A DNA stretch of 64,000 nt, from the IMG/VR virus record IMGVR_UViG_3300007735_001031, positions 1-64,000 of that record; one strand, 5' to 3'. The position numbers and the translations under genes are program-made. The notes under the pieces are model-generated. The model saw only the letters and a list, made by a program, of their open reading frames with translations. It did not search any database and had not been told where the DNA came from. This stretch comes from a virus. How positions within the stretch are numbered: the stretch's first letter is position 1; each line of letters begins with the position of its first letter. Shown here piece after piece: positions 6,046 through 22,277 of the stretch.

Positions 6046-6060
6046 AACTATTGAGGAATT

Positions 6061-7719: not shown

Positions 7720-7724
7720 TTTAA

Positions 7725-8551: not shown

Positions 8552-8814
8552 TTGTAAATTGAAGTGTTGTATTTAGAATCAATACGGAATCCGCCATCAA
8601 CCTCTTTCAGCTCGGATGCCTTGGGCCATAGTAGCAGGGACTCCTTTTTGCTGTCAAGGTCATCATCAGACAAAGCAACATAAGAAGTAGCAACTCTTAA
8701 TACTGAACGGGTCTTATTCATTTCCGCTCCAGAGAATTCAGTTAGAACAATCTTAGCTCCCGGAATCAATCTCCGTTTCAGTTCCGCTACTGTTAGTTTC
8801 TTCTTCTTCGCCAT
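8539..8814 (-). CDS. hypothetical protein
   Basis: ORF track; AGGAG SD. Confidence 0.75.
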   Translation of the reverse strand: MAKKKKLTVAELKRRLIPGAKIVLTEFSGAEMNKTRSVLRVATSYVALSDDDLDSKKESLLLWPKASELKEVDGGFRIDSKYNTSIYKWVE

Positions 8815-8828
8815 TAGAGTCTCCTAAA

Positions 8829-9494: not shown

Positions 9495-9557
9495 TTTTCC
9501 TCGTGATCTGGTTGTCTCATCCAACGCCACCAAGAATACCAGCGAGATAAATTGCTG

Positions 9558-9836
9558 TCAACCAGCCGAAGAATCTTCTTCAGAATTTTCTACATCCTTT
9601 TCTGTTATTGGTGATCGTTCAACGATTTCTTTTCCATCGTCGTTAAAGTATCGAATACCTTTTCGTGTTTCAATTCTTTTAAGTTTGCCGTTTTCAAAGT
9701 AGCCGAATGTTTCGGATCCACTACCATAGTCAATAGCAAAGCCGTCTGCTCTATGGTATTGGCCTTCACCATTACGCCAGACCTTTTGGCCTGATGGGAA
9801 TACTTCCAATTCAGCCTTCTTCGTTGAAACTACCAC
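9558..9836 (-). CDS. HREDGPA-like motif protein
   Basis: WRNGEGQYHRADGFAI. Confidence 0.65.
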   Translation of the reverse strand: MVVSTKKAELEVFPSGQKVWRNGEGQYHRADGFAIDYGSGSETFGYFENGKLKRIETRKGIRYFNDDGKEIVERSPITEKDVENSEEDSSAG

Positions 9837-10005
9837 TTAGGAAACTCTCCACACATTCCTGTGCTTCTTCCTTTGTCCTGTATGGAATGGTTCTTACTTC
9901 TTCTTCTCGTCCATCATTCCATACATTAACAAGGTGCGCCCAATAACCGGCAAAGGTTTCGCTAAGCTCGGCAGACACATAACCTTCTCTAATAAATTTC
10001 GCCAT
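9811..10005 (-). CDS. hypothetical protein
   Basis: ORF track. Confidence 0.6.
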   Translation of the reverse strand: MAKFIREGYVSAELSETFAGYWAHLVNVWNDGREEEVRTIPYRTKEEAQECVESFLSGSFNEEG

Positions 10006-10525
10006 GAAACATACTCCCTAAATAATCCTTCCATTCATCTGGAAGTGGGTTATTCTTGGTTGATTTGTTAAAGATCTCAAAGTTGTCGGGAACATAAGGT
10101 TCCTTCAATAGTTTCATTCCTGCTTGTTTTGGTGTTCTATCTTTCTTCTTTTGATTACAAGATACACAGCAAGAAACAATATTCTTCCAATTCGTCTTTC
10201 CGCCCTGCGAAATAGGGAGCACATGGTCCATCGTAAAGGTTCGCTTATCCAGCTTGATTTTACAATACTGGCATTCGTGATTGTCTCTAAGCATTACATT
10301 CGTTCGGCTGAACTTGGCGTTCTTTGCCTGACGATTGCGCTTGATGACTCCCTTTACGAAACGAATGATTGATGGAATCTGGAATGATTCTGAGATCGTA
10401 TTGACGACTCTATCTTTATAGAATTCAATAACCTCAACACGACCAGAGAACCAGAGACAGAAAGCCTCCTTCCAATCAACATACCGCATCGGCTGATAAG
10501 CTGTACTCAATACAAGTGTATCCAT
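9989..10525 (-). CDS. HNH endonuclease (McrA-like)
   Basis: RDxxxCQYC...TMDHVLPISQGG..W.NIV.CCVSCNQKK. Confidence 0.9.
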   Translation of the reverse strand: MDTLVLSTAYQPMRYVDWKEAFCLWFSGRVEVIEFYKDRVVNTISESFQIPSIIRFVKGVIKRNRQAKNAKFSRTNVMLRDNHECQYCKIKLDKRTFTMDHVLPISQGGKTNWKNIVSCCVSCNQKKKDRTPKQAGMKLLKEPYVPDNFEIFNKSTKNNPLPDEWKDYLGSMFHGEIY

Positions 10526-10552
10526 CGTCGTCCCTACCACATAGGCACCACC

Positions 10553-10581
10553 AGTGTAGGCCACCAGTAATTATCTGTCAA
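10553..10581 (-). promoter_or_regulatory. sigma70-type promoter with TAATTA spacer box
   Basis: TTGACA-GATAATTA..-TACACT, 17-nt spacer. Confidence 0.8.
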
Positions 10582-10590
10582 GTGTCTCAT

Positions 10591-10710
10591 TTATTCTAAT
10601 ATGATCCAAGTGGCTCTACCCGCTTCGTTATTCACCAACCAGTGATATTGAAGCCAGGTGCGATTTAACGAGGGTAAATAAGCAACATGGAGTTGAACTT
10701 GCTTTTTCAT
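10591..10710 (-). CDS. 39-aa micro-protein of the xLxV...WxxN family
   Basis: manual translation MKKQVQLHVAYLPSLNRTWLQYHWLVNNEAGRATWIILE; ATGA-coupled to GGCT. Confidence 0.6.
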   Translation of the reverse strand: MKKQVQLHVAYLPSLNRTWLQYHWLVNNEAGRATWIILE

Positions 10711-11141
10711 CGCATCACGTCTGCCTTGATTTGATCAACCTTATCGTGGTAATAAGATCTCCAATCGTTAGCCGGAATCTTCACATCCAAAGCGTTTAAA
10801 GAACCCTTAGCCAAAACATAAATGTAGGCGGCAACAGGATATTCTCTATCGCCAAACACAACATCAACAAGCTTTCGCTGATAGAAATGTGGGCAACCCT
10901 CGAGAACATCCAATCGCTTCAATAGTTCATCACTAACCACATAGAGTTCGCCAAGGATGAACTTTCCTTTATCACTCTCGATAATGCCCGGAAAGTATCC
11001 AAGATCATACATATCGTATCGTTGAATGGTCTTGGCGATGGAAAGATACTTTGCGTTGTTATTACGCAGGATTCCGTTGTTCTGTAGCCCCGAACAAAGG
11101 GAGCCATAAACGAATACCAAGTTCTTATTCTTCTCTTCCAT
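10707..11141 (-). CDS. gamma-glutamylcyclotransferase (AIG2-like)
   Basis: VFVYGSL, GELYVV, LDVLEG..YQR motifs. Confidence 0.9.
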   Translation of the reverse strand: MEEKNKNLVFVYGSLCSGLQNNGILRNNNAKYLSIAKTIQRYDMYDLGYFPGIIESDKGKFILGELYVVSDELLKRLDVLEGCPHFYQRKLVDVVFGDREYPVAAYIYVLAKGSLNALDVKIPANDWRSYYHDKVDQIKADVMR

Positions 11142-11142
11142 T

Positions 11143-11505
11143 TTAATCCTCTCTCTTCTTTTCTACCAAATCTTTCTCAATAAGCGGGAGGATGTTATCA
11201 CTCCAAATATCATTCTTAATTTCTTGGAAATTATCCCAATATCCGTCCGTTTTAGCGTCCTCTTTTGGATAATGGACATATTCCAAAAGAACATGCGGAG
11301 GAATTGTATTCAGACATTCTCTCAGGTTCTCATATTCTTCTCTGTATTCTCTATCATAGATAATATCAGTGATTACATTTTCGGTGGTAATGACTTCAAT
11401 ATCAGCAGAAACAATCTCGTCCTCACCAAGAGCTTGGAGTTCTCCAATCTTTTCTTGGAGATAGTTGATTAGTTCATTAACGGGGATAATTTTTCTGTAA
11501 TACAT
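11143..11505 (-). CDS. hypothetical acidic protein
   Basis: ORF track; GGAGG SD. Confidence 0.7.
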   Translation of the reverse strand: MYYRKIIPVNELINYLQEKIGELQALGEDEIVSADIEVITTENVITDIIYDREYREEYENLRECLNTIPPHVLLEYVHYPKEDAKTDGYWDNFQEIKNDIWSDNILPLIEKDLVEKKRED

Positions 11506-11655
11506 TTAATCCTCCACTTTGACGGAACGAGTGTGAATAGAACCAAAGGTTTTGTGTGGAAATTTGTGATAGGGCTTCTTATTCAGCCACCAAGAATATT
11601 CAATCACGGTTGGATTTATAGAATAAATATCAGTCATTAGAAGATAGGTTTTCAT
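11506..11655 (-). CDS. micro-protein array member 7 (49 aa)
   Basis: MKTYLLMTDIYSINPTVIEYSWWLNKKPYHKFPHKTFGSIHTRSVKVED. Confidence 0.7.
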   Translation of the reverse strand: MKTYLLMTDIYSINPTVIEYSWWLNKKPYHKFPHKTFGSIHTRSVKVED

Positions 11656-11789
11656 AGCCACACAAATCGTCTATTGGTTAATCCAATCTTTTTATCCACA
11701 CAGCAATATAATGGAATTTCGTTCAACCACCAAGAATACTTAACGGCGTTCGTAGCATAACTTTCAACTCTTAAGTGGTATGTTTTCAT
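11652..11789 (-). CDS. micro-protein array member 6 (45 aa)
   Basis: MKTYHLRVESYATNAVKYSWWLNEIPLYCCVDKKIGLTNRRFVWL; ATGA overlaps. Confidence 0.7.
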   Translation of the reverse strand: MKTYHLRVESYATNAVKYSWWLNEIPLYCCVDKKIGLTNRRFVWL

Positions 11790-11899
11790 CTGAATTGTAG
11801 CAACTTAAACTTAAATGTTTTGCCGTTTATCAGCCATTCTTTTCTCAAGAGATCTGGGGCGGAATATTGTTTGCGAATTGTAAATGTATGAATCTTCAT
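11786..11899 (-). CDS. micro-protein array member 5 (37 aa)
   Basis: MKIHTFTIRKQYSAPDLLRKEWLINGKTFKFKLLQFR; ATGA overlaps. Confidence 0.7.
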   Translation of the reverse strand: MKIHTFTIRKQYSAPDLLRKEWLINGKTFKFKLLQFR

Positions 11900-12012
11900 A
11901 GATAAATAAACCTCGTCCAAATTTCATAACCATCAACATAGAATGTTTGGCAAAGACGAGTTGGTATGTATTCCCACTCACTTGTATAGATTTTAAGTTT
12001 GTAGGTTTTCAT
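11896..12012 (-). CDS. micro-protein array member 4 (38 aa)
   Basis: MKTYKLKIYTSEWEYIPTRLCQTFYVDGYEIWTRFIYL. Confidence 0.7.
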   Translation of the reverse strand: MKTYKLKIYTSEWEYIPTRLCQTFYVDGYEIWTRFIYL

Positions 12013-12118
12013 CTAATTTAACGATCCTGCTTCCTGCGAAAACGAATTGATAGTTTATGAACCAAGAATACTTAATATAATATCGTGTTTGAAATACTCT
12101 CAACTCATATCTTTTCAT
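11993..12118 (-). CDS. micro-protein array member 3 (41 aa)
   Basis: MKRYELRVFQTRYYIKYSWFINYQFVFAGSRIVKLDENLQT. Confidence 0.7.
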   Translation of the reverse strand: MKRYELRVFQTRYYIKYSWFINYQFVFAGSRIVKLDENLQT

Positions 12119-12231
12119 AGATCAACATATATTCTAATTCTTTTGCCTTGGTTCTTTAGCCCAAACCATTCATAACGAACAAACGGCTCGGACACACTAA
12201 CTATCTCAACACTTAATTCAATCGTTCTCAT
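12115..12231 (-). CDS. micro-protein array member 2 (38 aa)
   Basis: MRTIELSVEIVSVSEPFVRYEWFGLKNQGKRIRIYVDL. Confidence 0.7.
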   Translation of the reverse strand: MRTIELSVEIVSVSEPFVRYEWFGLKNQGKRIRIYVDL

Positions 12232-12331
12232 GATAAACAAACCATTGTTTAATACAACGATGATCAACAAACTTACGATACATCAAGGCATTACTTCTAC
12301 ATACATTAACATCTAATTCAATCGTTCTCAT
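12218..12331 (-). CDS. micro-protein array member 1 (37 aa)
   Basis: MRTIELDVNVCRSNALMYRKFVDHRCIKQWFVYHEND; ATGA-coupled to the deaminase. Confidence 0.7.
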   Translation of the reverse strand: MRTIELDVNVCRSNALMYRKFVDHRCIKQWFVYHEND

Positions 12332-12738
12332 AGCTTCATCATCTCAAAGTATCCATCCTCAGTAGAGTAGAATACACGCTTGCTTCCACAGAATCGCATA
12401 GCTTCCTGACACATAGAACAAGGCTTGGAGTTGCGATACTCATTCTCATAATTCACACGAACAACATAAACATCGGCTCCCTCGGTGGAGTCCTTCGCCA
12501 TATTAAGAATGGCTCCGAGTTCAGCGTGAAGCGTTGCCTGTCCCTTAGTTCTGCAACGAAAGCGACCACCAAAAGAACAAGGCTTATCCTTGTTGTGGGA
12601 AGCATTTAGGACAACCCCGTGCTTCACCAAAACGGCACCATGACGAAACTTTCCGTAGCTGGAAAGCTCCGCCATTCTCTTTGCGAACTCAAACATTCGC
12701 TCGTTTCGTCTGGTAAGATCAATAGTTCTGATATACAC
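12328..12738 (-). CDS. cytidine/dCMP deaminase-fold zinc deaminase
   Basis: HGAVLV, HAE, SKPCSMC; start placed at the GTG after GAGGAG, downstream of the promoter. Confidence 0.85.
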   Translation of the reverse strand: MYIRTIDLTRRNERMFEFAKRMAELSSYGKFRHGAVLVKHGVVLNASHNKDKPCSFGGRFRCRTKGQATLHAELGAILNMAKDSTEGADVYVVRVNYENEYRNSKPCSMCQEAMRFCGSKRVFYSTEDGYFEMMKL

Positions 12739-12759
12739 GACACCGCTCCTCACCCTCAC

Positions 12760-12788
12760 AGCATACAGGGGAGATAATTACAGGTCAA
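12760..12788 (-). promoter_or_regulatory. sigma70-type promoter with TAATTA spacer box
   Basis: TTGACC-TGTAATTA..TG-TATGCT, 17-nt spacer. Confidence 0.75.
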
Positions 12789-12915
12789 GCTTGCTAATAA
12801 TGTTTCTATAATACCTTTCATTATAGAATCTTCCATTCTTTAACCATTCACGGCGAATAAGATCACCACCGAATAACCTAACTACCAGTTTGTATTCCGC
12901 GATCTCTGGCTTCAT
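12778..12915 (-). CDS. 45-aa micro-protein of the xLxV...WxxN family
   Basis: manual translation MKPEIAEYKLVVRLFGGDLIRREWLKNGRFYNERYYRNIISKLDL. Confidence 0.55.
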   Translation of the reverse strand: MKPEIAEYKLVVRLFGGDLIRREWLKNGRFYNERYYRNIISKLDL

Positions 12916-13093
12916 GTTCGTCGTCAATCCATATTCCATTTATGTAATAATCCTTATTCATTCCTTCAAAAGAGTCATAAATAAAAGCAGGGCCATCCAT
13001 TCTGTGAAGTCCATCGCCATTTCCCCACAATTTAGCGGGCATACGATCAAACTCAATTTTGTTATATTCCACAGAAAGGGTTATTACTCTCAT
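12878..13093 (-). CDS. small HREDGPA-motif protein
   Basis: MRVITLSV...LHRMDGPAF...YYING. Confidence 0.75.
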   Translation of the reverse strand: MRVITLSVEYNKIEFDRMPAKLWGNGDGLHRMDGPAFIYDSFEGMNKDYYINGIWIDDEHEARDRGIQTGS

Positions 13094-13401
13094 ATCAGCC
13101 CACGATCCTTCCCGTCAATACAGAAATCACATTCGCCTCTTCCATCGCAGAAACAGCAGGAGAAATATTTATCTACATTCTCTTTCACTTCTGCTTCCGA
13201 CATTTTAGCAATATCTTTGGCGAATTGTTCGGCTGAATCAAATGCTCCACAATTACAATCGTGCCAATCTTTATACCAGCCGCAAGTTGGTGAATGTTCC
13301 TCTTCACCATACTGGCAACCAACAGAACACCACAAACGATTCAACTCGTTGCTACCAATCTGATATTCTTTTCCACAAACACAGCAGTTAAGCGTTATCA
13401 T
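13090..13401 (-). CDS. Cys-rich hypothetical protein
   Basis: multiple CxxC motifs. Confidence 0.65.
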   Translation of the reverse strand: MITLNCCVCGKEYQIGSNELNRLWCSVGCQYGEEEHSPTCGWYKDWHDCNCGAFDSAEQFAKDIAKMSEAEVKENVDKYFSCCFCDGRGECDFCIDGKDRGLI

Positions 13402-13406
13402 TTTGA

Positions 13407-13580
13407 TTATTCATATGCTCCAATATCAAAAAACTTTCCTTCCTTATCAAAGGAAAGAATGGATACGAAACCAGAATATCCTTTCTCAACTGAGATAAAA
13501 GTAAAGTTTTCATCGTGTTCTCCGCGAAAATCAATATTCTGCCGCTCAAGCCAAGAGATAAATGTTTCAAGTTCGGTCAT
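13407..13580 (-). CDS. 57-aa hypothetical protein (MTELETFISW...)
   Basis: manual translation; fills the gap better than track ORF 13388-13570. Confidence 0.55.
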   Translation of the reverse strand: MTELETFISWLERQNIDFRGEHDENFTFISVEKGYSGFVSILSFDKEGKFFDIGAYE

Positions 13581-13583
13581 TAT

Positions 13584-13736
13584 TTACCCCACCATCCATT
13601 CTTCGTCTTTATATTCTGTAATGACGCTCCAAAGCAATCCTAAAAGATTCTCGTTTGTATGTAAATAGCAGGAATAAGAACAGACCCAAACAGGCTTTTT
13701 GCTTATCACTCCTGCTTTCTCACGAAAGATTTTCAT
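13584..13736 (-). CDS. 50-aa hypothetical protein (MKIFREKAG...)
   Basis: manual translation. Confidence 0.45.
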   Translation of the reverse strand: MKIFREKAGVISKKPVWVCSYSCYLHTNENLLGLLWSVITEYKDEEWMVG

Positions 13737-13846
13737 TTTGATTACCACGATCTCCAAAAGATATATAGGACAAGGAATCCCATAACAAAGTAAAGTCCTT
13801 CCGGATTTTCTTTTACAACATTAAACGCTTCAATCATTTTTTCCTT

Positions 13847-14209
13847 TGGTGGAGACGCCGCGAGTCGAACGCGGGTCTTGAATAATAATTGTAATCACTC
13901 ATTCACAGGAATAGCCAAACACCCAGCAGTTCAGCAGACCACCCAAAATATTGGGAACTTCATATGATTTTCTTTAAGGTAGAAACCATTAAAATAACCA
14001 ATTGTGGATATTCTTTTCGGCAGTATCCAAGCTTATCCAAACTTATTTTACAGAGCGTTTGGCAACTCCGTTTAACTAAGCTGCTAGAGCGTAATTAAAA
14101 GTTTCAACATTATCGTTGGCACTTAAACATTTCAGCGTTTTTACGATGCCACGCTGCCCATCGTCCTGCATAATTACAAATCTTACCCAATCGAAACCAG
14201 TTCGTCCCC
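13847..14209 (-). ncRNA. ssrA: tmRNA
   Basis: 5' GGGGACGAACTGGTTTCGA, 3' GTTCGACTCGCGGCGTCTCCACCA with G3-U; tag ORF ANDNVETFNYALAA* at 14120-14076. Confidence 0.95.
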
Positions 14210-14214
14210 TTATG

Positions 14215-14469
14215 TTATTCCTTCTTTTCTAGCGAGGTGAAGGCACCTTCCTCAATTAGTTTATACACTTGTCGAACATTTTTAAGTGTCTGAAACAGAA
14301 CAGCATGGGAGGGAGGAATAGAAATAATATTCTGTCCTTCGAACTCCATTAAGTCCTGCTCCACAACAACATCTAATTCTTGCGCGACAATATTCTCGAG
14401 ATTGTCGATAAGGCCTTCCATAGTTCGCTTGGTATAATCCTTATCATAAGACCAATAACGATTACGCAT
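14215..14469 (-). CDS. hypothetical protein
   Basis: ORF track; GAGG SD. Confidence 0.7.
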   Translation of the reverse strand: MRNRYWSYDKDYTKRTMEGLIDNLENIVAQELDVVVEQDLMEFEGQNIISIPPSHAVLFQTLKNVRQVYKLIEEGAFTSLEKKE

Positions 14470-14659
14470 TTCGTCCTCTAAACTTGTAGTTTTGGATGTT
14501 ATAAATGTATTGAGCAGATTGGAGAACTTGATTCTCCTTCTCTTCCTTCTGTTCGCACCAGAAGCATACGCCGTTTCTCATATCTCTAATGTCGTGCTCA
14601 ACACCACACTTCTTACAGGTTGCCGTATTCATAATGAAGTCCTCCTCTGCTATACACTA

Positions 14660-14688
14660 ACTATAGCAGAGGAGGAAATCTGTGTCAA
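14660..14688 (-). promoter_or_regulatory. sigma70-type promoter overlapped by a 14-bp inverted repeat
   Basis: TTGACA-17-TATAGT; CCTCCTCTGCTATA/TATAGCAGAGGAGG at 14641-14675. Confidence 0.8.
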
Positions 14689-14704
14689 GGGGAGTTAAAA
14701 GAGA

Positions 14705-15088
14705 TTATCCGTTGTCTAATATTTTACCAACAGTTTCAACAACTTCATCAAGAGTTGAGCAGAACCTGCCTTTAACTCTAACTCCGAAATCATCATTATC
14801 AATTGCTAAGAACATAAAAATATCATCGCTGGATGACTTACCATGTTTGTTGCCGTTATAAAAGATACCTGCGATTCCTTGAGTTTGAATTTCAAACTTA
14901 CCAGGACCAAACTCTCGATCTAATCTATCTACGATTTGATCAAGAATTGGCTTTCCTTTTCCTCTATTTGCTTTTAGCCCAAATCCACTACGACCACCAG
15001 CGGAAGGAGAAGCTCTACCAAAATCACCTTCATCTAAGGTATCTTGGATTGCCTCTAAAATCATTTTCTTTAATAATCTATCGTTCAT
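14705..15088 (-). CDS. putative late/virion-associated protein
   Basis: MNDRLLKKMILEAIQDTLDE leader; ACTATTTAT upstream at 15114-15122. Confidence 0.7.
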   Translation of the reverse strand: MNDRLLKKMILEAIQDTLDEGDFGRASPSAGGRSGFGLKANRGKGKPILDQIVDRLDREFGPGKFEIQTQGIAGIFYNGNKHGKSSSDDIFMFLAIDNDDFGVRVKGRFCSTLDEVVETVGKILDNG

Positions 15089-15121
15089 TAACAATCTCCT
15101 ATAAGATTACAGGATAAATAG

Positions 15122-15784
15122 TTATTCAAATTCCTTAATTGCCTTTTTAAGCTTTTTCAATTCATCTTTCAAAGAGGAAATTGATTCAGAAAATTCTTTA
15201 TCTTCTTCAAGACCAACAAACTTTAAGAAATTAGATTCCAAGCTTTCAAACTCTTTGTTTGTTTCATCAATTAAAGATTGAACTTCTTTTGATTTAGCAT
15301 CACATTTGGTTTGTTCTTCTTTCTTCTTTTCTTCCCGCTTTTGTTGATCTTGAGATTTATGATCCTGTTTGGGAGATTTAGATTTTGATCTTAACTTTTT
15401 CAAATGTCCTGCCTTTGATAGAGCAGAAACCCCTGTTGCTACTACTGCGGTTGTAGCCGCAACGGCAATCGTAGCAACGACAGCAGTTTCTGTATTGAGA
15501 ACTGGCTTATCAACTTCTTTCGGAGGAATAGCAATAAGCGTTGAACTTTCTGATAGAGGAACAGAAACAGGTGGAGTTGTAGCAGTTTGATCTGTCGGAG
15601 TTTCTACCGCTGGTGGAGCCACTATGGTATCCTCCTGGGGTAGGGGTATGGTCTTATCCTCCACCTGTTTCTTTTCTGGAATAGGATGATGTTTAACCAC
15701 TTTCTTCTTCACAGAAGGTTGTGGTTTTTTCTCTTCATCCTTTTCTTCTTCACCATATTCAAAAGAGAAAGGATTATTACTCAT
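15122..15784 (-). CDS. Pro-rich membrane-anchored coiled-coil protein
   Basis: ORF track; central hydrophobic segment. Confidence 0.7.
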   Translation of the reverse strand: MSNNPFSFEYGEEEKDEEKKPQPSVKKKVVKHHPIPEKKQVEDKTIPLPQEDTIVAPPAVETPTDQTATTPPVSVPLSESSTLIAIPPKEVDKPVLNTETAVVATIAVAATTAVVATGVSALSKAGHLKKLRSKSKSPKQDHKSQDQQKREEKKKEEQTKCDAKSKEVQSLIDETNKEFESLESNFLKFVGLEEDKEFSESISSLKDELKKLKKAIKEFE

Positions 15785-16283
15785 CGTCGGAATCCTTTAC
15801 TCTTTTTTTCTTGCTCTTTCTTTCTCTTTCTTCTTGTTCTTCAATCTCTTCTTGGATCTTCTTAACTTTCTTCTTTAACTTCTTTACGCCTTCATCAAGA
15901 GCGGAAACTTCTTGTTTTTGCTTCTCAACAATCTCTTTTGAAGCTTTCTCTGTTTCGGCTGCCTTGTGGTTAATTTCATTAAGCTTTGCTTTGAGGGCTG
16001 AAACTTGAGAACCTAATTCCTCTTGTTTGGCTACGCACTGTTCGTGTCCTGTGGCTGAACTTAATTTAATCTCAGCCATCTTTTCTTCATGCTTTTGTTC
16101 TTGTTTTTGTTTTAACCAGTCCCAAACTTTCTTGCCGCCTAAAATACCAACAGCGCCCAAAGCAAGCATAACCACTGGGTTTCCGTTGCTAAGATGCGCT
16201 ATTTGATTAATATCGATATTTCCGTCTGCGACGGCACTTGAAACTGAATGTGCTAAATCAACTTGAGCTAATAAATTTATCAT
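15777..16283 (-). CDS. membrane-anchored coiled-coil protein
   Basis: ORF track; GGAGG SD; TM segment followed by coiled coil. Confidence 0.7.
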   Translation of the reverse strand: MINLLAQVDLAHSVSSAVADGNIDINQIAHLSNGNPVVMLALGAVGILGGKKVWDWLKQKQEQKHEEKMAEIKLSSATGHEQCVAKQEELGSQVSALKAKLNEINHKAAETEKASKEIVEKQKQEVSALDEGVKKLKKKVKKIQEEIEEQEERERKSKKKRVKDSDDE

Positions 16284-16374
16284 ACATGAGTCCCTCCATG
16301 GTAAAAAAGTATGTATAATAAGTAGTTTGCAACATTCAGTTTTTCGGCCTTTGAGGTTTCATCCACATACCTAA

Positions 16375-16462
16375 ACTCCCACGAACTATGAGGGATTTGA
16401 ACCCACATGACGCCTTCCCCTAGTGGGCAAGCGGTTCTACCACTTTGAATTAATAGGGGAGT
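16375..16462 (-). pseudogene. aberrant tRNA-like element with expanded anticodon arm (CTA at apex)
   Basis: D-arm TTCAAAGTGGTAGAA and T-arm GGGTTCAAATCCC present; acceptor broken; outer ACTCCC/GGGAGT stem. Confidence 0.55.
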
Positions 16463-16593
16463 CATGCTTCTAAATGTTGCGTAAAGTATCCAGGATTGCG
16501 GCTAAAACTATACATAACCTATCATACTAACACAAGCCATTTTCAGCTCTCGATCTTCAAATGTTCGATTGTCTAGTATAACTACTTCTGGAT

Positions 16594-16669
16594 TGGTGCC
16601 GCCAGAGGGAGTCGAACCCCCGACCACATGATTACAAATCAAGTGCTCTACCAACTGAGCTATGACGGC
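16594..16669 (-). tRNA. tRNA-Thr(TGT)
   Basis: cloverleaf, TGA-TTTGTAA-TCA, encoded CCA. Confidence 0.93.
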
Positions 16670-16678
16670 TTCTTTTAC

Positions 16679-16879
16679 TCATAGGTCTAGCATAGCAGAC
16701 CCATATTTCTCGCGCAAGTTATCAAAGAATTGTTTTGAGGCGAGAATGATTTTATCTGTATTCAATTTCTTCTTTGCTTTTAGTGTTAATAACTGACCAG
16801 CAAACAAAGACATATCAGCCCAACGCGGGGACAAGATATAATATTTCTCACCATCAAAAATATACTCTATAGTTGTCAT
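16679..16879 (-). CDS. hypothetical protein
   Basis: ORF track. Confidence 0.55.
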   Translation of the reverse strand: MTTIEYIFDGEKYYILSPRWADMSLFAGQLLTLKAKKKLNTDKIILASKQFFDNLREKYGSAMLDL

Positions 16880-16899
16880 CTTTTTAAGTAGTTATTTTC

Positions 16900-16988
16900 T
16901 GGCGGAAACGACAGGATTTGAACCTGTGGAACCAAAAAGGTTCGGCGGTTTAGCAAACCGCTGCTTTCGGCCACTCAGCCACGTTTCC
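16900..16988 (-). tRNA. tRNA-Ser(GCT)
   Basis: long variable arm, GCGGT-TTGCTAA-ACCGC, G73, CCA. Confidence 0.95.
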
Positions 16989-16989
16989 A

Positions 16990-17682
16990 TTATCTTAACG
17001 CTTCTGTCATCCTTATCGCTGAGTTCCCAACCTTACCATGATACCAAGGAGAAGTCAAGGGGTGGATCTCCAACAATAAGTTCTTTGACTTCTCAATTCT
17101 TTTTACTGAGGTTTGCGTTCCAGTTCCTTTTAAATACCAAATTTCAGTTCTAATTGGTTGCTTATTCAAACAGCTATTCCAAGCTTTATCTAGCCAATCA
17201 CCATAAGAAGCATCAGACCAAACAACCCAAGTTGGGTTTAGATTACAAAGACCACCAGTTTTCGCTGCTTCTGCTATTGCTTTACCGCCGCGAGAGTGTC
17301 CGACAATAACTAGATTTATTCTCTTATTTGTTTCTGGAACAACTTTTAATGCTGCTCTTACAAACTTTTCAAAGGAATCTTTTTGAGTCCAAGCATGTTG
17401 CCCATGCGGCTCAATAAGTCTTGTGCTCCAAGGTAATTCTGGATGAATCCATGTAAAAGATTTCTTCTCTTGAACTAGCCATTTAATAGATGGTGCCGTT
17501 CTTTCTTCAAATTCATCTTTATCAAAACCATTCATTCCATGAAACCAAACAATAATATTATGTTGTTTAGCCTCTGGAACTTCGTGATGAACTAGAACCA
17601 CTCCTCTATAATCATTCTCGACCATGGAACCAGTCCAAGTCCATAAGTGAAGAGGTAATAATAATTTTAATAATATACTCAC
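16990..17682 (-). CDS. alpha/beta-hydrolase with N-terminal signal
   Basis: WFHG and GHSRGG nucleophile elbow. Confidence 0.75.
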   Translation of the reverse strand: MSILLKLLLPLHLWTWTGSMVENDYRGVVLVHHEVPEAKQHNIIVWFHGMNGFDKDEFEERTAPSIKWLVQEKKSFTWIHPELPWSTRLIEPHGQHAWTQKDSFEKFVRAALKVVPETNKRINLVIVGHSRGGKAIAEAAKTGGLCNLNPTWVVWSDASYGDWLDKAWNSCLNKQPIRTEIWYLKGTGTQTSVKRIEKSKNLLLEIHPLTSPWYHGKVGNSAIRMTEALR

Positions 17683-17888
17683 TTTTCTCTTTTAGCTCTA
17701 ATTGAATTTAGCCAATCTGATGTAGAATCCAAATCAAATGGCTTAGGAATTGGTAGGAAAGGAAATACGGCATGAAGAAAATAAATTATTGCTGACATTC
17801 CAAGCCTGTAAGTTCCCTTCCAAGCAATAAGCAAATGCTCTAAATATGTTTCTCCAACTGAATGTGGATGCTTTGTAAAAGGATTCAT
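17679..17888 (-). CDS. DUF6356-like protein
   Basis: NPFTKHPHSVGETYLEH...HAVFPF. Confidence 0.75.
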   Translation of the reverse strand: MNPFTKHPHSVGETYLEHLLIAWKGTYRLGMSAIIYFLHAVFPFLPIPKPFDLDSTSDWLNSIRAKREK

Positions 17889-17900
17889 TTTATTCTCCTT

Positions 17901-17989
17901 TGGCGGAAGCTAAGAGATTCGAACTCCTGGATGCTTTTAACATCGACGGTTTTCTAGACCGTTGCCATAAACCACTCGGCCAAACTTCC
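17901..17989 (-). tRNA. tRNA-Ser(AGA)
   Basis: ACGGT-CTAGAAA-ACCGT, long variable arm, G73, CCA. Confidence 0.92.
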
Positions 17990-17997
17990 GTTGTTAT

Positions 17998-18261
17998 TTA
18001 CTTTTCGTGGAAATCAACTGATTCGATTGCTACCAAAGTGATGGGAGTTGATGGATCCAATAAGCCCTGAGCTGTTCTATAAACTGAAGTTCCATTCTCT
18101 CCAAGTTCAACAACTTTATAACAACCTGGATTTGCTTCATCTGGAAAATCCACTAGAATTACCAACTTATTACCCAATCTGGATGGGATCATAAAACAAT
18201 CTCCAACTGCCGCATCAGATAGAACTTTTGGGCTTGAAGGTGTAACGTTATTAATATGCAT
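17998..18261 (-). CDS. hypothetical protein
   Basis: ORF track; AGGAG SD. Confidence 0.7.
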   Translation of the reverse strand: MHINNVTPSSPKVLSDAAVGDCFMIPSRLGNKLVILVDFPDEANPGCYKVVELGENGTSVYRTAQGLLDPSTPITLVAIESVDFHEK

Positions 18262-18291
18262 ATTAAATGTCTCCTATGACATAATAAGTAG

Positions 18292-18375
18292 TGGAGGAAG
18301 AGAGATTCGAACTCCCTAGCCGACAAAGGAACAGATTTACAGTCTGCCGCAACCCGCCATCGTTGCCGTTCCTCC
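18292..18375 (-). tRNA. tRNA-Tyr(GTA)
   Basis: GCAGA-CTGTAAA-TCTGT, long variable arm. Confidence 0.9.
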
Positions 18376-18384
18376 AATATTTAG

Positions 18385-18469
18385 TGCTCCCGGTGAGAAT
18401 CGAACTCACAAGACCCAAAGGGTCGGCAGATTTTAAGTCTGCTGCGTCTACCTGTTTCGCCACAAGAGC
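18385..18469 (-). tRNA. tRNA-Leu(TAA)
   Basis: GCAGA-CTTAAAA-TCTGC, long variable arm. Confidence 0.95.
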
Positions 18470-18481
18470 ATTAACTTTCAG

Positions 18482-18561
18482 TGCGTCGGGAGAGACTTGA
18501 ACTCTCACTCCAAAGGAAGCGGATTTTGAGTCCGCCGCGTCTACCATTCCACCACCAACGC
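18482..18561 (-). tRNA. tRNA-Leu(CAA)
   Basis: GCGGA-CTCAAAA-TCCGC, variable arm. Confidence 0.93.
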
Positions 18562-18569
18562 ATGTGAAC

Positions 18570-18598
18570 AGTATAGCTGGTCTTTAATTAGCTGTCAA
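18570..18598 (-). promoter_or_regulatory. sigma70-type promoter with TAATTA spacer box
   Basis: TTGACA-GCTAATTA..-TATACT. Confidence 0.85.
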
Positions 18599-18602
18599 GT
18601 CA

Positions 18603-19484
18603 TTATTTAACGTTTGCAATTATTGCAGACAACTGCGAAAAACTTAACCTTTTTCTATACTTTCCAGACTTCATCATAGACTTAAATGATGTTAGATAAA
18701 AATCATTAGTAGAGCGTCTCCAGTCTGAAATAAATTCGTTTATTTTTTGACAATCTAACTGTTTTTCCGAGAAAAATAGAGCATAATTTCTAGAAGTATT
18801 TTTTAAGAATTTTTTTCTATCAAAAGAATCATCAACTTCAGAGATGCTCAGATTTTCTTTATCTGTTCTATCAATTGCCGATAAGACATAATTTCCATGT
18901 GCTACATTAAATTTTAATTTTGAATCACCGGAAAGATTGTTCTCTTTAATTTCTTTGCCATTTACAAAGATCTTTGTTTCACATTTATCTGGACCGAAAT
19001 ATGCAACTCCGACTGGATTATCTGTGTCGTCAAACAATTGATAATCTAGCTTATCCCATGCAATTAATCTATCTTGAAATTTATTTAAGCCATAGTATGT
19101 AGATGGAATAATTGCAGCAACGTACTCGCAATTATTCAACATTAATTGAATGCAGTCAAGATAAAGATCTTCGTTTTTCATTGAAACGGATAACTTCAAC
19201 CTGCTGGCACTATTTTTTGCCAAATATGGTGGATTTGTTATGCAAACTTTATAACCAATTGGAAAATTACTTATCGTATCTCTTAATTTAATTGACGGAT
19301 GATTGGGCTCAATATCAAACCCAACCCAGCTTTCTGGAAGAAAATTGAATAGATTGCCTGCCCCAGCGAACGGCTCTAATACTTCAGCCCCTTGCGGGCG
19401 AACAGAGTTCCATAAAGAAAAAGCATCCCCAATAAATGGGTTTTTAGTCGTATAAAATTGACCAAGCTTTTTCTTTTTAGACAT
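18603..19484 (-). CDS. N6-adenine DNA methyltransferase (gamma-type motif order)
   Basis: GQFYT, EPFAGAG (motif I), NPPY (motif IV). Confidence 0.85.
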   Translation of the reverse strand: MSKKKKLGQFYTTKNPFIGDAFSLWNSVRPQGAEVLEPFAGAGNLFNFLPESWVGFDIEPNHPSIKLRDTISNFPIGYKVCITNPPYLAKNSASRLKLSVSMKNEDLYLDCIQLMLNNCEYVAAIIPSTYYGLNKFQDRLIAWDKLDYQLFDDTDNPVGVAYFGPDKCETKIFVNGKEIKENNLSGDSKLKFNVAHGNYVLSAIDRTDKENLSISEVDDSFDRKKFLKNTSRNYALFFSEKQLDCQKINEFISDWRRSTNDFYLTSFKSMMKSGKYRKRLSFSQLSAIIANVK

Positions 19485-20004
19485 TTGCAGTTGCTTCCTT
19501 TAATGGACCAATATAAAACTTTTCTTTTAATTCTTGCGGAATTAAATCATTCATTCTTTGCCAATGTTTAGAAAGTAATTCTCCATCTAGAATGAACAAA
19601 AATTTGTCTACCTTAATTTTATTATCAAGACTTACAGATTTTATACATGCTTTAATATGCCAATAAACTTCCTTGATTGATCTATTCTGAGATCCACCAT
19701 TTTCTGGAATCATTTTAAATGAAACTACACACTCTTTTCCATTTTTGGTGAAAACTCCATCAAAATCTTCAGACCATACGGATGGATCTAGTTCCTGCAT
19801 GGAACTTTTTACAATTTTAATCTCTCCGGAGTCAATATTAACTCTAATATCTTTTTTCTTTTTAATTTGTACACCAAGGTGTTTTTCTAAATAATCTTTT
19901 TGAAATTTTTCATCTTCAGATTTACCTCTTCCATTTGAGATAATTTCCGATCTTAGTTTTTTTGTAAAAATTTTTGGAATTTCTTGTAAAACGTTGTCGC
20001 TCAT
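19477..20004 (-). CDS. putative restriction endonuclease-like protein
   Basis: overlaps MTase; EDFDG...SFK...GGSQ..SIKEV PD-(D/E)xK-like arrangement. Confidence 0.5.
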   Translation of the reverse strand: MSDNVLQEIPKIFTKKLRSEIISNGRGKSEDEKFQKDYLEKHLGVQIKKKKDIRVNIDSGEIKIVKSSMQELDPSVWSEDFDGVFTKNGKECVVSFKMIPENGGSQNRSIKEVYWHIKACIKSVSLDNKIKVDKFLFILDGELLSKHWQRMNDLIPQELKEKFYIGPLKEATANV

Positions 20005-20005
20005 T

Positions 20006-20383
20006 TTATTCTTCCCTCATAATTACCTGACTCAAATCAACTCTTTCACCATCTGCATCCCAGCAGCCCCAAAAGTCATGATTGAAGAGATAAAAATATT
20101 CAGCCCAAGAATCTCTGCCCGCTCTCATAAAGATTTCAAATGAAGAATAAGTATCGGCGTCAACACCAGTTTCTCCACGATCTTTATAAAAGACACACTC
20201 ATTTAGAGTATGGTCAATAGTACTCATATCGCCACCAGCAAGTAAAGAATCTACCTGCGCTTCAGTGATATAACTATCAATTAGAATCTTACCAACATGA
20301 CCGGGATATCCGTCAAAATGGCAATAGATTGCAGTAATAGTATCATCCTTGTTGATCTTACCAATAAAACTACGAGTTGCCAT
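20006..20383 (-). CDS. conserved phage protein (TRS..IYCHxDGYP)
   Basis: recognisable motif. Confidence 0.8.
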   Translation of the reverse strand: MATRSFIGKINKDDTITAIYCHFDGYPGHVGKILIDSYITEAQVDSLLAGGDMSTIDHTLNECVFYKDRGETGVDADTYSSFEIFMRAGRDSWAEYFYLFNHDFWGCWDADGERVDLSQVIMREE

Positions 20384-20391
20384 TTTATTTC

Positions 20392-20679
20392 CTAAACGGT
20401 GAAGGAGTCAAGTCTGTGTTTAATAAATGCGAGGAAAATTACTGTTCCAAAAGTATATCCAAATCCTTCGAACATCGCAAGCTTTAATTTCTCTTTAATT
20501 GTTTTTTCTTCTACAATCAAGAGAATTGGAACCATGCTAACGAAAGGATAGGTTAAGTTAGAAAAAATAGCAACTGGATAGGAATTATGGTTTGCCGCAT
20601 AAGCGCACATATTGAACCAAAATTCAACCAAGACCGCTGAAACAAAGGCGATGAAATATTTATGTTTTATCCAATTCAT
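20392..20679 (-). CDS. small multi-pass membrane protein
   Basis: three hydrophobic segments; start MNWIKH. Confidence 0.7.
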   Translation of the reverse strand: MNWIKHKYFIAFVSAVLVEFWFNMCAYAANHNSYPVAIFSNLTYPFVSMVPILLIVEEKTIKEKLKLAMFEGFGYTFGTVIFLAFIKHRLDSFTV

Positions 20680-20680
20680 T

Positions 20681-20768
20681 TGGTCCGCGCTGGAGGAGTT
20701 GAACCTCGACGGCACCGCCACTCAAGTTTAACCAAAGGTTTATAAGACCCCCGAGTGGAGCAGCGCGG
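20681..20768 (-). tRNA. non-canonical tRNA-like RNA, anticodon TAT, 8/4 fold, no D-arm
   Basis: CCGCGCTG/CAGCGCGG + ACCA; GAGG-TTCAACT-CCTC; GGGGT-CTTATAA-ACCTT; CCACTC/GAGTGG. Confidence 0.75.
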
Positions 20769-20780
20769 CTTGATAGAGAC

Positions 20781-20809
20781 AGTGTAGCCCGTCTCTATTT
20801 GGCTGTCAA
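20781..20809 (-). promoter_or_regulatory. sigma70-type promoter
   Basis: TTGACA-17-TACACT. Confidence 0.85.
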
Positions 20810-20815
20810 GCCTGG

Positions 20816-21130
20816 TTAATATTGACAGGCAACTTCACTTCCATGAAAACTTGAATCATTGGGGTCTTTAATCTTAACCGAAAGTAATGGCTTGATTGAC
20901 TTAAAGAACTCAAACGACTTCTCCGCAACTTCCTTCGCTTGTTCTTCGCTCGGGCAGGCAAGATCAAAGGCGTTCCAGTAAGTATCGCCCTCGATATGAA
21001 CATTTACAGAAAACCAATCTTCTTTCTTCTCGCCTCTTGATTTAATCTCTTGAACCTTTACATGAATACCAGATTCTTCGTCGATAAATTCAAGATCAAT
21101 TTCTTTTCTCTCTCTTGGTTTAAGTTCCAT
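20816..21130 (-). CDS. hypothetical protein
   Basis: ORF track; AGGAG SD. Confidence 0.7.
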   Translation of the reverse strand: MELKPRERKEIDLEFIDEESGIHVKVQEIKSRGEKKEDWFSVNVHIEGDTYWNAFDLACPSEEQAKEVAEKSFEFFKSIKPLLSVKIKDPNDSSFHGSEVACQY

Positions 21131-21139
21131 TATTATCTC

Positions 21140-21535
21140 CTATGCTGCATGGCCAGCAAAAATATACTTCTCATATCCGCCGTTATCTTGAAGCCACTTC
21201 TCCACAATCTGCTTGTCAGCTTCTTCAAGACGACCAATCATATAATCATATTCCTTCTTTGTCAAGCGCATCTTATGATTATTCTTAACAAGAGAATACT
21301 TGAAATATCCATCAATTCTTTCGATAACAGCATTAGCCGTCTTTGATTGTCTTTCCTTATCCATCATCATAGTTTCATACTCTCGCATTCTCTTCTGAAC
21401 ATGAATCTTACATAGATCCTCGAGTTCATTAAAAAGTTGCTCGTCGCAGATATTTGATAGGTGTTGCTTCAATACATCACGGGCAAGCGATGAAATAAAG
21501 TTTGTATTATTCAGCACCAGATTCGCGTTTCCCAT
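21140..21535 (-). CDS. hypothetical protein
   Basis: 3' part of track ORF; start MGNAN. Confidence 0.6.
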   Translation of the reverse strand: MGNANLVLNNTNFISSLARDVLKQHLSNICDEQLFNELEDLCKIHVQKRMREYETMMMDKERQSKTANAVIERIDGYFKYSLVKNNHKMRLTKKEYDYMIGRLEEADKQIVEKWLQDNGGYEKYIFAGHAA

Positions 21536-21899
21536 TTTCATATCCTTCATCATATCCTTCTTTGCGCCCTTCTTCTTTTCCATCTTCCCAGCCACGATCA
21601 TAACCAGAATCACGACCTTCGCTTGCTCCTTCCTGATATCCATTATCATACGCATCTTCGCGCTCTGATTCAATAATGCTATCGATGGTTTCTTCAAACT
21701 CTATTACATGATAGATTCTAGCATCGGGAAAATCTTTATCCGGGTTTTTATGTTTCCACTCAACCTTAGCCTCGTAATTCAATTGCTCAGCATAAGCAGC
21801 AGCAATATCATAATCGGTAAATACCTTTTTAATATCATTAAATGGACTTGCGATGTATCCATTACGGACAAAGTATAGATCCTTAAAATCATAAAGCAT
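21507..21899 (-). CDS. hypothetical protein with GxxxG (Yae1/FliH-like) repeats
   Basis: GYQEG..GYDRG..GYDEGYENG. Confidence 0.7.
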   Translation of the reverse strand: MLYDFKDLYFVRNGYIASPFNDIKKVFTDYDIAAAYAEQLNYEAKVEWKHKNPDKDFPDARIYHVIEFEETIDSIIESEREDAYDNGYQEGASEGRDSGYDRGWEDGKEEGRKEGYDEGYENGKRESGAE

Positions 21900-22040
21900 T
21901 TAATACCAGCAATCTTGTAGGAGTATTGTTCTTGTTTGAAGCTGTTTGGGAAGCATTCTTTTCCCTCTCCAGCAATAATACATCATCTTGTGTCTTGAAT
22001 GATAATAAACTCTAAAGGTTATTGTTTTTACCTTTGGCAT
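21900..22040 (-). CDS. 46-aa micro-protein, probable xLxV...W family member
   Basis: MPKVKTITFRVYYHSRHKMMYYCWRG...; ATG overlaps the tRNA-Ala 3' end. Confidence 0.45.
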   Translation of the reverse strand: MPKVKTITFRVYYHSRHKMMYYCWRGKRMLPKQLQTRTILLQDCWY

Positions 22041-22113
22041 GGTGGACAGTGAGGGAATCGAACCCTCGATCTCGGCTTGCAAAGCCGATGTTATCCCGTT
22101 TAACTAACCGCCC
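22040..22113 (-). tRNA. tRNA-Ala(TGC)
   Basis: G3-U70, TCGGC-TTTGCAA-GCCGA, CCA. Confidence 0.92.
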
Positions 22114-22117
22114 TTTA

Positions 22118-22194
22118 TGGTCGGCGTTGAGGGATTTGAACCCCCGACAGCTTGCTCCCAAAGCAAGTGCGCTACCAGACTGCGCTAAACGCCG
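22118..22194 (-). tRNA. tRNA-Pro(TGG)
   Basis: CTTGC-TTTGGGA-GCAAG, CCA. Confidence 0.95.
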
Positions 22195-22202
22195 TTATGT
22201 TT

Positions 22203-22277
22203 TGGAGCGGGTAATGGGATTCGAACCCATGACGAACAGCTTGGAAGGCTGACACTCTACCCCTGAGTTATACCCGC
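22203..22277 (-). tRNA. tRNA-Gly(TCC)
   Basis: CAGC-CTTCCAA-GCTG, U73, CCA. Confidence 0.95.

Follow-up and report, generated by a model that had tools for sequence, protein, structure and literature searches.

A phage-borne family of tRNA-like genes with no D hairpin, a putative pseudoknotted core and mostly a UAU anticodon

We analysed a 64,000-nucleotide (nt) stretch of viral DNA, hereafter the window, which is part of the 72-kb IMG/VR virus record IMGVR_UViG_3300007735_001031, estimated to be 39% complete and labelled 'provirus'. Its minus strand carries, inside a tRNA-rich region of the phage, on the same strand as that region and outside any tRNA array, an 88-nt tRNA-like gene with an encoded CCA end, hereafter the element, whose parts are listed in Table 1. 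A preliminary description made from the sequence alone had noticed an 8-bp acceptor stem, a 4-bp T stem with the loop TTCAACT, A73-CCA and the anticodon loop CT-TAT-AA, all of which are present on the minus strand; a plus-strand reading of the element was ruled out because the G-U pairs fit the minus strand alone and would turn into A-C in the other orientation. The textbook view is that tRNAs for bacterial ribosomes are cloverleaves, and the element has the 12-bp acceptor/T stack, the T-loop bases, the discriminator and CCA, and the 7-nt anticodon loop, in which position 33 is U and position 37 a purine, that characterize a canonical tRNA. The gap from acceptor to anticodon stem is just 8 nt, with no hairpin at the D-arm site, and a canonical cloverleaf cannot be drawn for it. 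A long-range pairing of CCACTC with GAGTGG, 3' of the anticodon arm, had been proposed to replace the D hairpin; this helix, P2, is present, and both of its sides change at five of the six pairs among the relatives of the element.

Annotation programs pass the element by. On the minus strand of the window ARAGORN called 14 tRNAs and a transfer-messenger RNA (tmRNA), with none on the plus strand, and it called neither the element nor any of its relatives at 27 loci (0/27). At gathering scores, Rfam matched 13 of ARAGORN's 14 tRNAs (the tRNA-Tyr is missing) and the tmRNA in the window, and nothing else; no Rfam 15 family, RF00005 included, reached its gathering score with the element or with 19 relatives. 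When the threshold was made permissive, the lone match was tRNA-Sec (RF01852), at 18.7 bits compared with a gathering score of 47 (E = 0.44). Membership of the tmRNA or anticodon-less tRNA-like class is ruled out for the element by its canonical anticodon arm, the phage tmRNA lying elsewhere in the window.

Relatives were collected by pattern scans. In viral contigs, the anticodon loop plus the T loop, a pattern that requires the UAU loop, gave 94 stretches, CGGTGCC plus the T loop gave 18, and GGCGGTGC plus a degenerate T loop gave 74; in metagenome contigs, GCGGTGC with a T arm and ACCA gave 99 stretches comprising 72 distinct strings. A pattern of T arm plus ACCA alone was abandoned, its three loci all being unrelated tRNA-like 3' ends. 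Nineteen distinct relatives, retained by a filter that demanded pairing and after two false positives had been dropped, were aligned with MAFFT (alignment A2). The four nested helices are paired in 96.1% of the cells of A2, a figure inflated by the filter, compared with 65.6% in shuffles and 43-53% (maximum 52.5%) with slid partners. The compensatory changes are unaffected by that selection: both sides change at 19 of the 24 pairs, and the covariation score was matched by none of 500 shuffles. Helix by helix, such changes occur at 8/8 acceptor pairs (98.7-99.3% of cells paired in the MAFFT and model-fitted alignments), in P2 (96.5% and 99.3%, respectively), at 4/6 pairs of the anticodon stem and at 2/4 of the T stem, whose last two pairs are invariant in all 19 sequences together with U54, U55, C56 and A58, as are C32, U33 and A37 of the anticodon loop. 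RNAalifold, working from the alignment only, returned the same acceptor, P2, anticodon and T helices.

A covariance model built from A2 (R1) scored the element at 96.2 bits and the canonical tRNAs of the window at 26.6 bits or less; over the whole 72-kb record the element was its sole strong match, with no second copy. The R1-fitted alignment of 71 matches (49 distinct), which leans toward the model structure because it is fitted to it, had 97.1% of helix cells paired, and the discriminator is A in 48 of the 49 distinct relatives. The homologue search with covariation that the preliminary description had proposed as a check came out in its favour, and we consider it extremely likely that a phage-borne tRNA-like family with this nested-helix secondary structure exists.

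Conservation at the locus itself points in the same direction. Between the window and two near-identical contigs (L205 and L269), the element varies at 1 of 88 columns, an insertion or deletion in the A run at the CCA/ATG boundary, and the flanks vary at 30 of 304 (8/137 in the end of the upstream open reading frame (ORF), 6/47 in the intergenic leader and 16/120 in the downstream ORF). Judged from these sequences, the element is under purifying selection and is better conserved than anything around it. A tRNA pseudogene in decay, or an att-site tRNA remnant left by integration, would suit the 'provirus' label and the rejection of the element by tRNA finders, but both acceptor strands are present, the helices are preserved by compensatory changes, and the gene content, as read from sequence, is that of a large lytic-type phage despite the label. 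Covariation contradicts this explanation, to which we give next to no credence, and bears out the early argument that the intact stems reflect selection and not decay.

A further helix crosses the nested structure. Over 3-6 bases, the aligned sequences just 3' of the anticodon stem complement those just 3' of CGG(U), and this pairing (P3) takes the forms AGC/GCU, CCGU/GCGG, CUGCA/UGCAG, GCGCA/UGCGC, CCGCUA/UAGCGG and others outside the window. With a free register, at least 3 bp form in 47 of 47 distinct sequences, compared with 33% when the 3' segments are shuffled and 49% when strands are swapped between helix types; in the fixed MAFFT columns, 75.4% of cells are paired and both sides change at 3/3 pairs. 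The sequence support for P3 is weaker than that for P2. Since P3 crosses P2, both together would make a pseudoknot, and the core of the RNA is probably such a pseudoknot of P2 and P3. The P3 helix (3-6 bp) stands at the position of the variable arm, and its loop of about 17 nt holds the A-rich strand, the 3' strand of P2 and CGGU. The strands that flank CGGU pair with two upstream segments and not with each other, the local hairpin having 2-3 bp and, by inspection, not being maintained.

Three other foldings of the single sequence were rejected. The minimum free energy (MFE) fold, in which P2 is stretched to 9 bp and a 4-bp AACC/GGUU hairpin takes the place of the anticodon arm, was discarded, since it gives up a covarying anticodon stem for a hairpin that relatives do not keep. 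By eye, a 4-bp CUCC/GGGG mini D hairpin would abolish the anticodon arm, and a local GGC-GGU-GCC hairpin is lost in members whose P3 has 4-6 bp.

From these sequences, the functions of the D arm look relocated rather than lost. The term 'D-arm-less' used in the preliminary description is right in that the D hairpin is absent and too narrow in that a covarying P3 crosses P2. In the architecture that we propose, the acceptor/T branch would be a normal 12-bp stack with an 8/4 split and the anticodon arm would be canonical, while the six bases 3' of the acceptor would pair with six bases in the loop of the P3 hairpin to form P2. The P3 hairpin would stand in for a long variable arm, the CGGU in its loop could dock on the T loop, and the roles of D stem and D loop would be supplied from 3' of the anticodon arm via the pseudoknot. 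P2 is continuous with the anticodon stem on the 5' strand, so it can stack on that stem like a D stem, and the GG of CGGU would sit at the distal end of P2, the place at which a D-loop GG makes contact with the T loop. P3 and the T stem are separated by 3-5 bases, which would correspond to an ordinary variable-loop length, and the A-rich joining strand may make groove contacts. The 6 bp of P2 plus the 6 bp of the anticodon stem would equal the D-plus-anticodon length given for tRNA-Sec-like tRNAs in the accessible part of PMC5389517.

Table 1. Parts of the element and other features of the window (positions in the window; R1, covariance model of the family)
Feature	Position	Strand	Basis or remark
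Whole tRNA-like gene, 88 nt including encoded CCA	20681..20768	-	Sequence; 96.2 bits with R1
Acceptor stem, 8 bp, all Watson-Crick	20768-20761 with 20692-20685	-	Sequence
2-nt connector after the acceptor 5' strand	20760-20759	-	Sequence
P2 5' strand, CCACUC, at the usual D-arm start	20753..20758	-	Pairs with 20718-20723
Anticodon arm, 5-6-bp stem and 7-nt loop CUUAUAA (20740-20746)	20734..20752	-	Anticodon UAU at 20742-20744
P3 5' strand, GGU, immediately 3' of the anticodon stem	20731..20733	-	Predicted to pair with GCC 20711-20713
A-rich joining strand, UAAACUU, from P3 5' strand to P2 3' strand	20724..20730	-	Two A columns invariant or nearly so (n = 19)
P2 3' strand, GAGUGG	20718..20723	-	Pairs with 20753-20758
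CGGU motif, like the allo-tRNA D tetraloop	20714..20717	-	G, G and U invariant; C in 18/19
P3 3' strand, GCC (20711-20713), and 3-nt connector to the T stem	20708..20713	-	Pairing in relatives
T arm, 4-bp stem (20707-20704 with 20696-20693) and loop UUCAACU (20703-20697)	20693..20707	-	Sequence
Acceptor 3' strand (20685-20692), discriminator A73 (20684) and encoded CCA (20681-20683)	20681..20692	-	Sequence
Sigma-70-like match, TTGACA (20809-20804), 17 nt, TACACT (20786-20781)	20781..20809	-	10/12; 12 nt before the acceptor
8-bp inverted repeat across the -10 hexamer (20790-20797 with 20773-20780)	20773..20797	-	Sequence
Downstream ORF, 95 aa, ATG 1 nt after CCA	20392..20679	-	Conserved in two relatives, many third-position changes
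tRNA-rich region of the phage	935..22277	-	Contains the element
tmRNA	13847..14209	-	Rfam, 119 bits
tRNA-Ser, anticodon AGA	17901..17989	-	ARAGORN; Rfam tRNA, 51.3 bits
GroEL-type chaperonin	34389..35957	-	phrog_5725, 1.2e-134
DNA polymerase, 1135 aa	41238..44642	-	phrog_405, 4.8e-239
Short adenylosuccinate-synthetase homologue, 335 aa, one of an adjoining pair with an IMPDH/GMP-reductase-family gene	56404..57408 and 57421..58383	-	phrog_1211, 3.2e-67; Pfam Adenylsucc_synt, 1.2e-87
Ribonucleotide reductase	61504..63357	-	

The fold was compared with several known kinds of tRNA. The 8/4 branch had been likened to that of allo-tRNAs with the reservation that the D hairpin is missing here, and the helices behind this comparison are confirmed in the relatives. 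According to the accessible part of PMC5389517, from which the allo-tRNA data used here are drawn, phage tRNA clusters had been seen before to contain 8/4 tRNAs, and the (8/4) allo-tRNAs of Mukai et al. (2017) keep a D hairpin with a stem of 5-6 bp closed by a YGGU tetraloop. Both kinds of RNA have a 12-bp acceptor/T branch split 8/4 and a 6-bp anticodon stem, UAU is the most frequent anticodon in each, and both contain a YGGU motif and bear a weak resemblance to tRNA-Sec models. The element differs in that the strands flanking its CGGU form P2 and P3 instead of a tRNA-Sec-like D stem-loop, in its discriminator A73 compared with the G73 or U73 of most allo-tRNAs, and in having no G3-U70, a pair that some allo-tRNAs carry. 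Allo-tRNAs are bacterial (soil and sediment Acidobacteria and others), whereas members of this family turned up only in viral and metagenome contigs and in one cultured phage. Likewise, GGCGGTGC, GGGGGTCTTATAA and GCTGTCTTATAAGC, which are characteristic of the family, have no occurrence in the allo-tRNA sequence table of that paper as far as it is accessible (PMC5389517). With tRNA-Sec (RF01852) the element shares a long acceptor stem and a 6-bp anticodon stem, and it differs in its anticodon (UAU, not UCA), its branch (8/4, not 8/5) and the lack of a D hairpin.

D-armless mitochondrial tRNAs such as mt-tRNA-Ser(AGY) likewise have no D hairpin, serve as adaptors and join acceptor and anticodon arms by a single strand; as described in the accessible parts of PMC7609411 and PMC9427863, they are reduced and flexible and have co-evolved organellar factors. 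By contrast, the element has 88 nt, G+C-rich stems and covarying long-range helices, would work with bacterial factors and is encoded in a 72-kb virus record. The suggestion that the fold lies outside described families is upheld by the Rfam 15 result and by the absence of its motifs from the allo-tRNA table, and a full-text search of the literature, in which subscription journals are thinly covered, found no account of it.

Two further groups of viral genes have a UAU anticodon. One of them, class B, comprises phage tRNA-Ile(UAU) genes of about 89-95 nt that form a cloverleaf, with a CGGU tetraloop on the D hairpin (viral contigs L015, L018, L026, L032, L048, L055, L058, L061, L062, L069, L077, L101 and L016). 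Their long extra arm ends in a 7-nt loop, C-A-G-A-U-U/C/A-A, that displays G-A-U; ARAGORN calls tRNA-Ile(tat) in 8 of the 13 loci, and the L101 gene directly adjoins a tRNA-Ile(GAU). In its anticodon loop and its T loop UUCAACU, class B is identical to the element, though both were required by the search pattern, and it also shares CGGU, the setting in phage tRNA arrays and, in some members, a near-identical anticodon stem. The fold of the window differs from it in having no D hairpin, in displaying no GAU and in the ARAGORN calls (0/27 compared with 8/13).

The other, a 7/5 group of 75-83-nt UAU tRNA-like genes in viral contigs (L020, L024, L031, L033, L041, L064, L080, L097, L009, L050, L063 and L081), includes seven loci (L020, L024, L031, L009, L050, L063 and L081) that score 34-56 bits with R1 and of which ARAGORN called none. 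By eye, their anticodon hairpin is nested in a covarying 3-bp helix (CGG/CCG, CCC/GGG, CUC/GAG or CCU/AGG), after which comes a segment resembling a D loop, AG(Y)GGU or AAYUGGU, and from these sequences the group may be the canonical-size counterpart of the fold in the window. Viral contigs also hold 'minihelix' tRNA-like elements, in which an acceptor stem and T arm are preceded by GGCGGUGC and there is no anticodon arm (L119; L129/L147/L170/L171/L178/L184; L132/L169; and L002, where the minihelix directly follows a tRNA-Thr); these could be the ends of tmRNAs or represent a further tRNA-like class.

Among the 49 distinct sequences of the family the anticodon is UAU in 42, a count that comes partly from the scan requiring the UAU loop, GUA in 4 and CAU in 2; the remaining one (L267, 53 bits) keeps the acceptor and T stems along with both long-range helices, P2 and P3, and has an odd segment in place of a recognisable anticodon arm. 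Scans without a fixed anticodon gave UAU in 5 of 5 distinct sequences (CGGTGCC scan) and in 8 of 13 (GGCGGTGC scan; GUA in 3 and CAU in 2), and UAU was found in 48 of the 50 loci with the window-type fold that were picked by eye from the 99 metagenome stretches. AUA would be the main use of the scaffold. The presence of GUA and CAU copies on the same scaffold means that it is not AUA-specific, and the initial view of an architecture devoted to AUA, which agrees with the dominance of UAU, has to be widened to this extent.

The genomic settings are those of tRNA genes. At 14 of the 27 loci tested a canonical tRNA lies on the same strand within 40 nt of the element, and in several the two abut. 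In two phage genomes, G001 and G002 (51.8 and 54.4 kb; 96% and 100% complete, respectively), the rewired GUA gene is the sole GUA tRNA found and lies about 37 nt upstream of Leu(CAA)-Leu(UAG), with two Ser genes following in G002; in the window, a canonical tRNA-Tyr adjoins Leu(UAA) and Leu(CAA), which is the position of the GUA element relative to the Leu genes. The whole tRNA set of G002, a complete 54-kb phage, consists of the rewired GUA gene, Leu(CAA), Leu(UAG), Ser(GCU) and Ser(CGA) (L312, 6233-6744), and so includes only those types whose variable arm is long in bacterial tRNAs. In G004, a complete jumbo phage of 243 kb, the CAU version stands between Leu(GAG) and Ser(GCU), touching the latter, in a region where an Ile(GAU) and two CAU tRNAs of canonical form are also encoded.

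As for distribution, the metagenome pattern matched 12 stretches in 185,579 bacterial and archaeal species genomes (one each), none of them a member (best R1 score 29.1 bits), although absence from these genomes is unproven because the pattern demands ACCA and one form of the motif. A blastn search of 50,697 cultured-phage records was negative with the CAU type and with each of five UAU-type queries; the GUA type alone gave a hit, to one relative, a GUA member in Rhizobium phage RHph_N3_2 (MN988526.1, 39882-39970; 69.2 bits with R1), which is unannotated and is not called by ARAGORN. The 401 bases around the element recur in public runs labelled as aquatic, estuary or marine metagenomes from at least 5 studies, not counting those that may be the source of the record, with at least 64% of sampled words in each.

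The codon usage of the window is of the kind that an AUA reader would serve. At 40% G+C, the window uses AUA 210 times, or for 18.7% of its isoleucine codons, and its 14 canonical tRNAs include an Ile(GAU) and no CAU or UAU tRNA. U34 is found in 8 of these 14 and serves the A-ending codons AGA, ACA, UUA, GCA, CCA, GGA and GAA (CAA-type Leu aside), a set that a UAU tRNA would complete. Taking sequence, structure and setting together, we think it reasonably likely that the element is a working phage elongator tRNA of non-cloverleaf form that reads AUA, probably as isoleucine. Its gene would be transcribed with or beside other phage tRNA genes and its transcript trimmed in the same way; the RNA would most likely be charged with isoleucine and most likely be read at AUA codons, and it would give the phage an AUA reader of its own, independent of the scarce lysidine-modified tRNA-Ile2 of the host and of TilS.

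Several points weigh against this proposal, and some concern the RNA itself. Its maturation, charging and decoding are predictions. Its MFE of -32.5 kcal/mol is not unusually low (z = -1.20, with 22 of 200 shuffles as stable); thermodynamics by itself tells little here, and the comparative evidence is decisive. P3 is short and G+C-rich, with only 3 bp including one G-U in the window copy, and P2 and P3 cross, so that they may not form simultaneously, as the model supposes. Other points concern decoding. According to the accessible parts of PMC3575796, IleRS of E. coli charges tRNA-Ile with a UAU anticodon poorly, and on E. coli ribosomes an unmodified UAU does not distinguish AUA from AUG; in Mycoplasma mobile, whose tRNA-Ile2 has a normal cloverleaf and reads AUA through UAU without lysidine or TilS, this needed a changed IleRS and an adapted ribosome. 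E. coli IleRS also reads G16, D20, D21 and U12-G23 in the D loop and D stem (accessible part of PMC9976931), and without a D hairpin these determinants cannot take the form that they usually have; of the minor determinants in E. coli, C4-G69 and C29-G41 are not conserved in the family. The IleRS and ribosome of the host may differ from those of E. coli.

Six allo-tRNA(UAU) species were inactive as amber suppressors in E. coli, two proved toxic, and Mukai et al. suspect a non-translational role for the allo-tRNA(UAU) group, for which there are also links to toxin-antitoxin systems and transposons (accessible part of PMC5389517). These data would suit a tRNA mimic that does not decode, being a decoy or regulator of a nuclease, toxin, modification enzyme or synthetase, or being charged yet undelivered, as would the missing D-region determinants of E. 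coli IleRS and an unusual core that might exclude EF-Tu, the ribosome or IleRS. However, a decoy needs neither a perfect 12-bp acceptor/T branch nor A73-CCA nor an invariant U33/A37 loop; the GUA scaffold takes the place of a missing tRNA-Tyr in two near-complete phage genomes, which is hard to explain for a decoy, and in the loci examined the members stand within ordinary tRNA arrays and not next to toxin-antitoxin genes. We consider a mimic, the chief rival to our proposal, unlikely.

A decoder that carries an amino acid other than isoleucine, by which the phage would recode or mistranslate AUA, seems to us less probable still. Allo-tRNAs insert Ser or Ala whatever the anticodon (accessible part of PMC5389517), the usual D-region determinants of IleRS are missing, and IleRS of the E. 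coli type disfavours UAU. However, the near-universal discriminator A is unlike the G/U of Ser-type allo-tRNAs, there is no G3-U70, pair 3 being G-C in 18/19, the anticodon loop retains the isoleucine determinants A35, U36, A37 and A38, and the AUA codons of the window stand in ordinary-looking phage genes.

An isoleucine tRNA for AUA remains our preferred reading. Contigs from four RNA-library runs (four studies) have no differences in the element and differ at 11 places in the flanks; RNA libraries may contain DNA, and their contigs are a hint of expression, not a proof of transcription. A dedicated promoter had been claimed from the spaced hexamers upstream of the acceptor, and the sigma-70-like match is there, with both hexamers the same in two close relatives and two differences in the spacer. 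A scan of 1 kb found 6 promoter-like sites compared with 2.3 +/- 1.4 in shuffles. The RNA-library contigs extend upstream across this site into the preceding ORF, which implies that, if they derive from RNA, some transcription reads through from upstream. The site is weaker evidence than the structure of the RNA, and a dedicated promoter is plausible. The arms of the inverted repeat across its -10 hexamer are also the same in the two relatives, with one different base in the loop. About 10 L010-type loci from metagenomes have a hexamer resembling a -10 box (TATATT, TACATT or TATACT) that ends 6-7 nt before the acceptor, which fits self-standing transcription in that subgroup. In three runs the RNA-library contigs end near 20680-20685, and 20560-20679 is uncovered, from which we draw no inference; one contig of run X19 returns from 20847 to 20680 through 25 letters of other sequence, which may reflect tandem copies of leader and element in a relative or an assembly artefact.

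The ORF that begins directly after the element probably encodes a membrane protein, being hydrophobic by eye; it has no Pfam or PHROG match and no relative in the viral contigs. Its start codon 1 nt after CCA, a spacing kept in two close relatives, and the lack of an obvious Shine-Dalgarno sequence could mean that the element is a tRNA-shaped processing or leader element for this gene. Other phages, however, have tRNA genes or unrelated DNA 3' of the element and not this ORF, and conservation follows the RNA and not the ORF, so that we regard a leader role as very improbable.

Other features of the window were noted in passing. The tmRNA, in the same tRNA-rich region, has the tag peptide ANDNVETFNYALAA, and the anticodon of one tRNA-Ser is AGA; tRNAs of the bacterial type do not usually have A as their wobble base. 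A GroEL-type chaperonin, a DNA polymerase and a ribonucleotide reductase are encoded, the first two with PHROG matches. The adenylosuccinate-synthetase homologue matches the PHROG family '2-aminooxy adenylosuccinate synthetase', and short PurA-like genes (PurZ) are a hallmark of phages whose DNA has 2-aminoadenine in place of adenine.

In the accessible part of PMC11551756, a paper of 2024, every known bacterial tRNA is said to be a cloverleaf. It seems to us evenly balanced whether evolution in phages has arrived at a second way of building a tRNA, a full-size and active adaptor whose D arm is assembled in a trans-like manner by a pseudoknot and which is used for AUA, for UAY and with a CAU anticodon. 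Such rewiring may be an escape from host nucleases or toxins that recognise the D arm or the elbow, or from host modification such as that by TilS. ARAGORN and Rfam miss every member tested, which would amount to a blind spot in annotation, with a bias in phage tRNA counts and analyses of codon supply. The question is directly testable, since Rhizobium phage RHph_N3_2, which grows on Rhizobium phaseoli, carries a member. If the proposal is true, these RNAs would be the first natural class of non-cloverleaf elongator tRNAs on bacterial ribosomes and, if active, they would mean that the L shape can be reached through a different chain topology. They would also provide a natural, possibly orthogonal scaffold for genetic-code work, and they would raise the question of why phages need this fold, whether for the supply of AUA reading without TilS or for the evasion of tRNA-directed defences.

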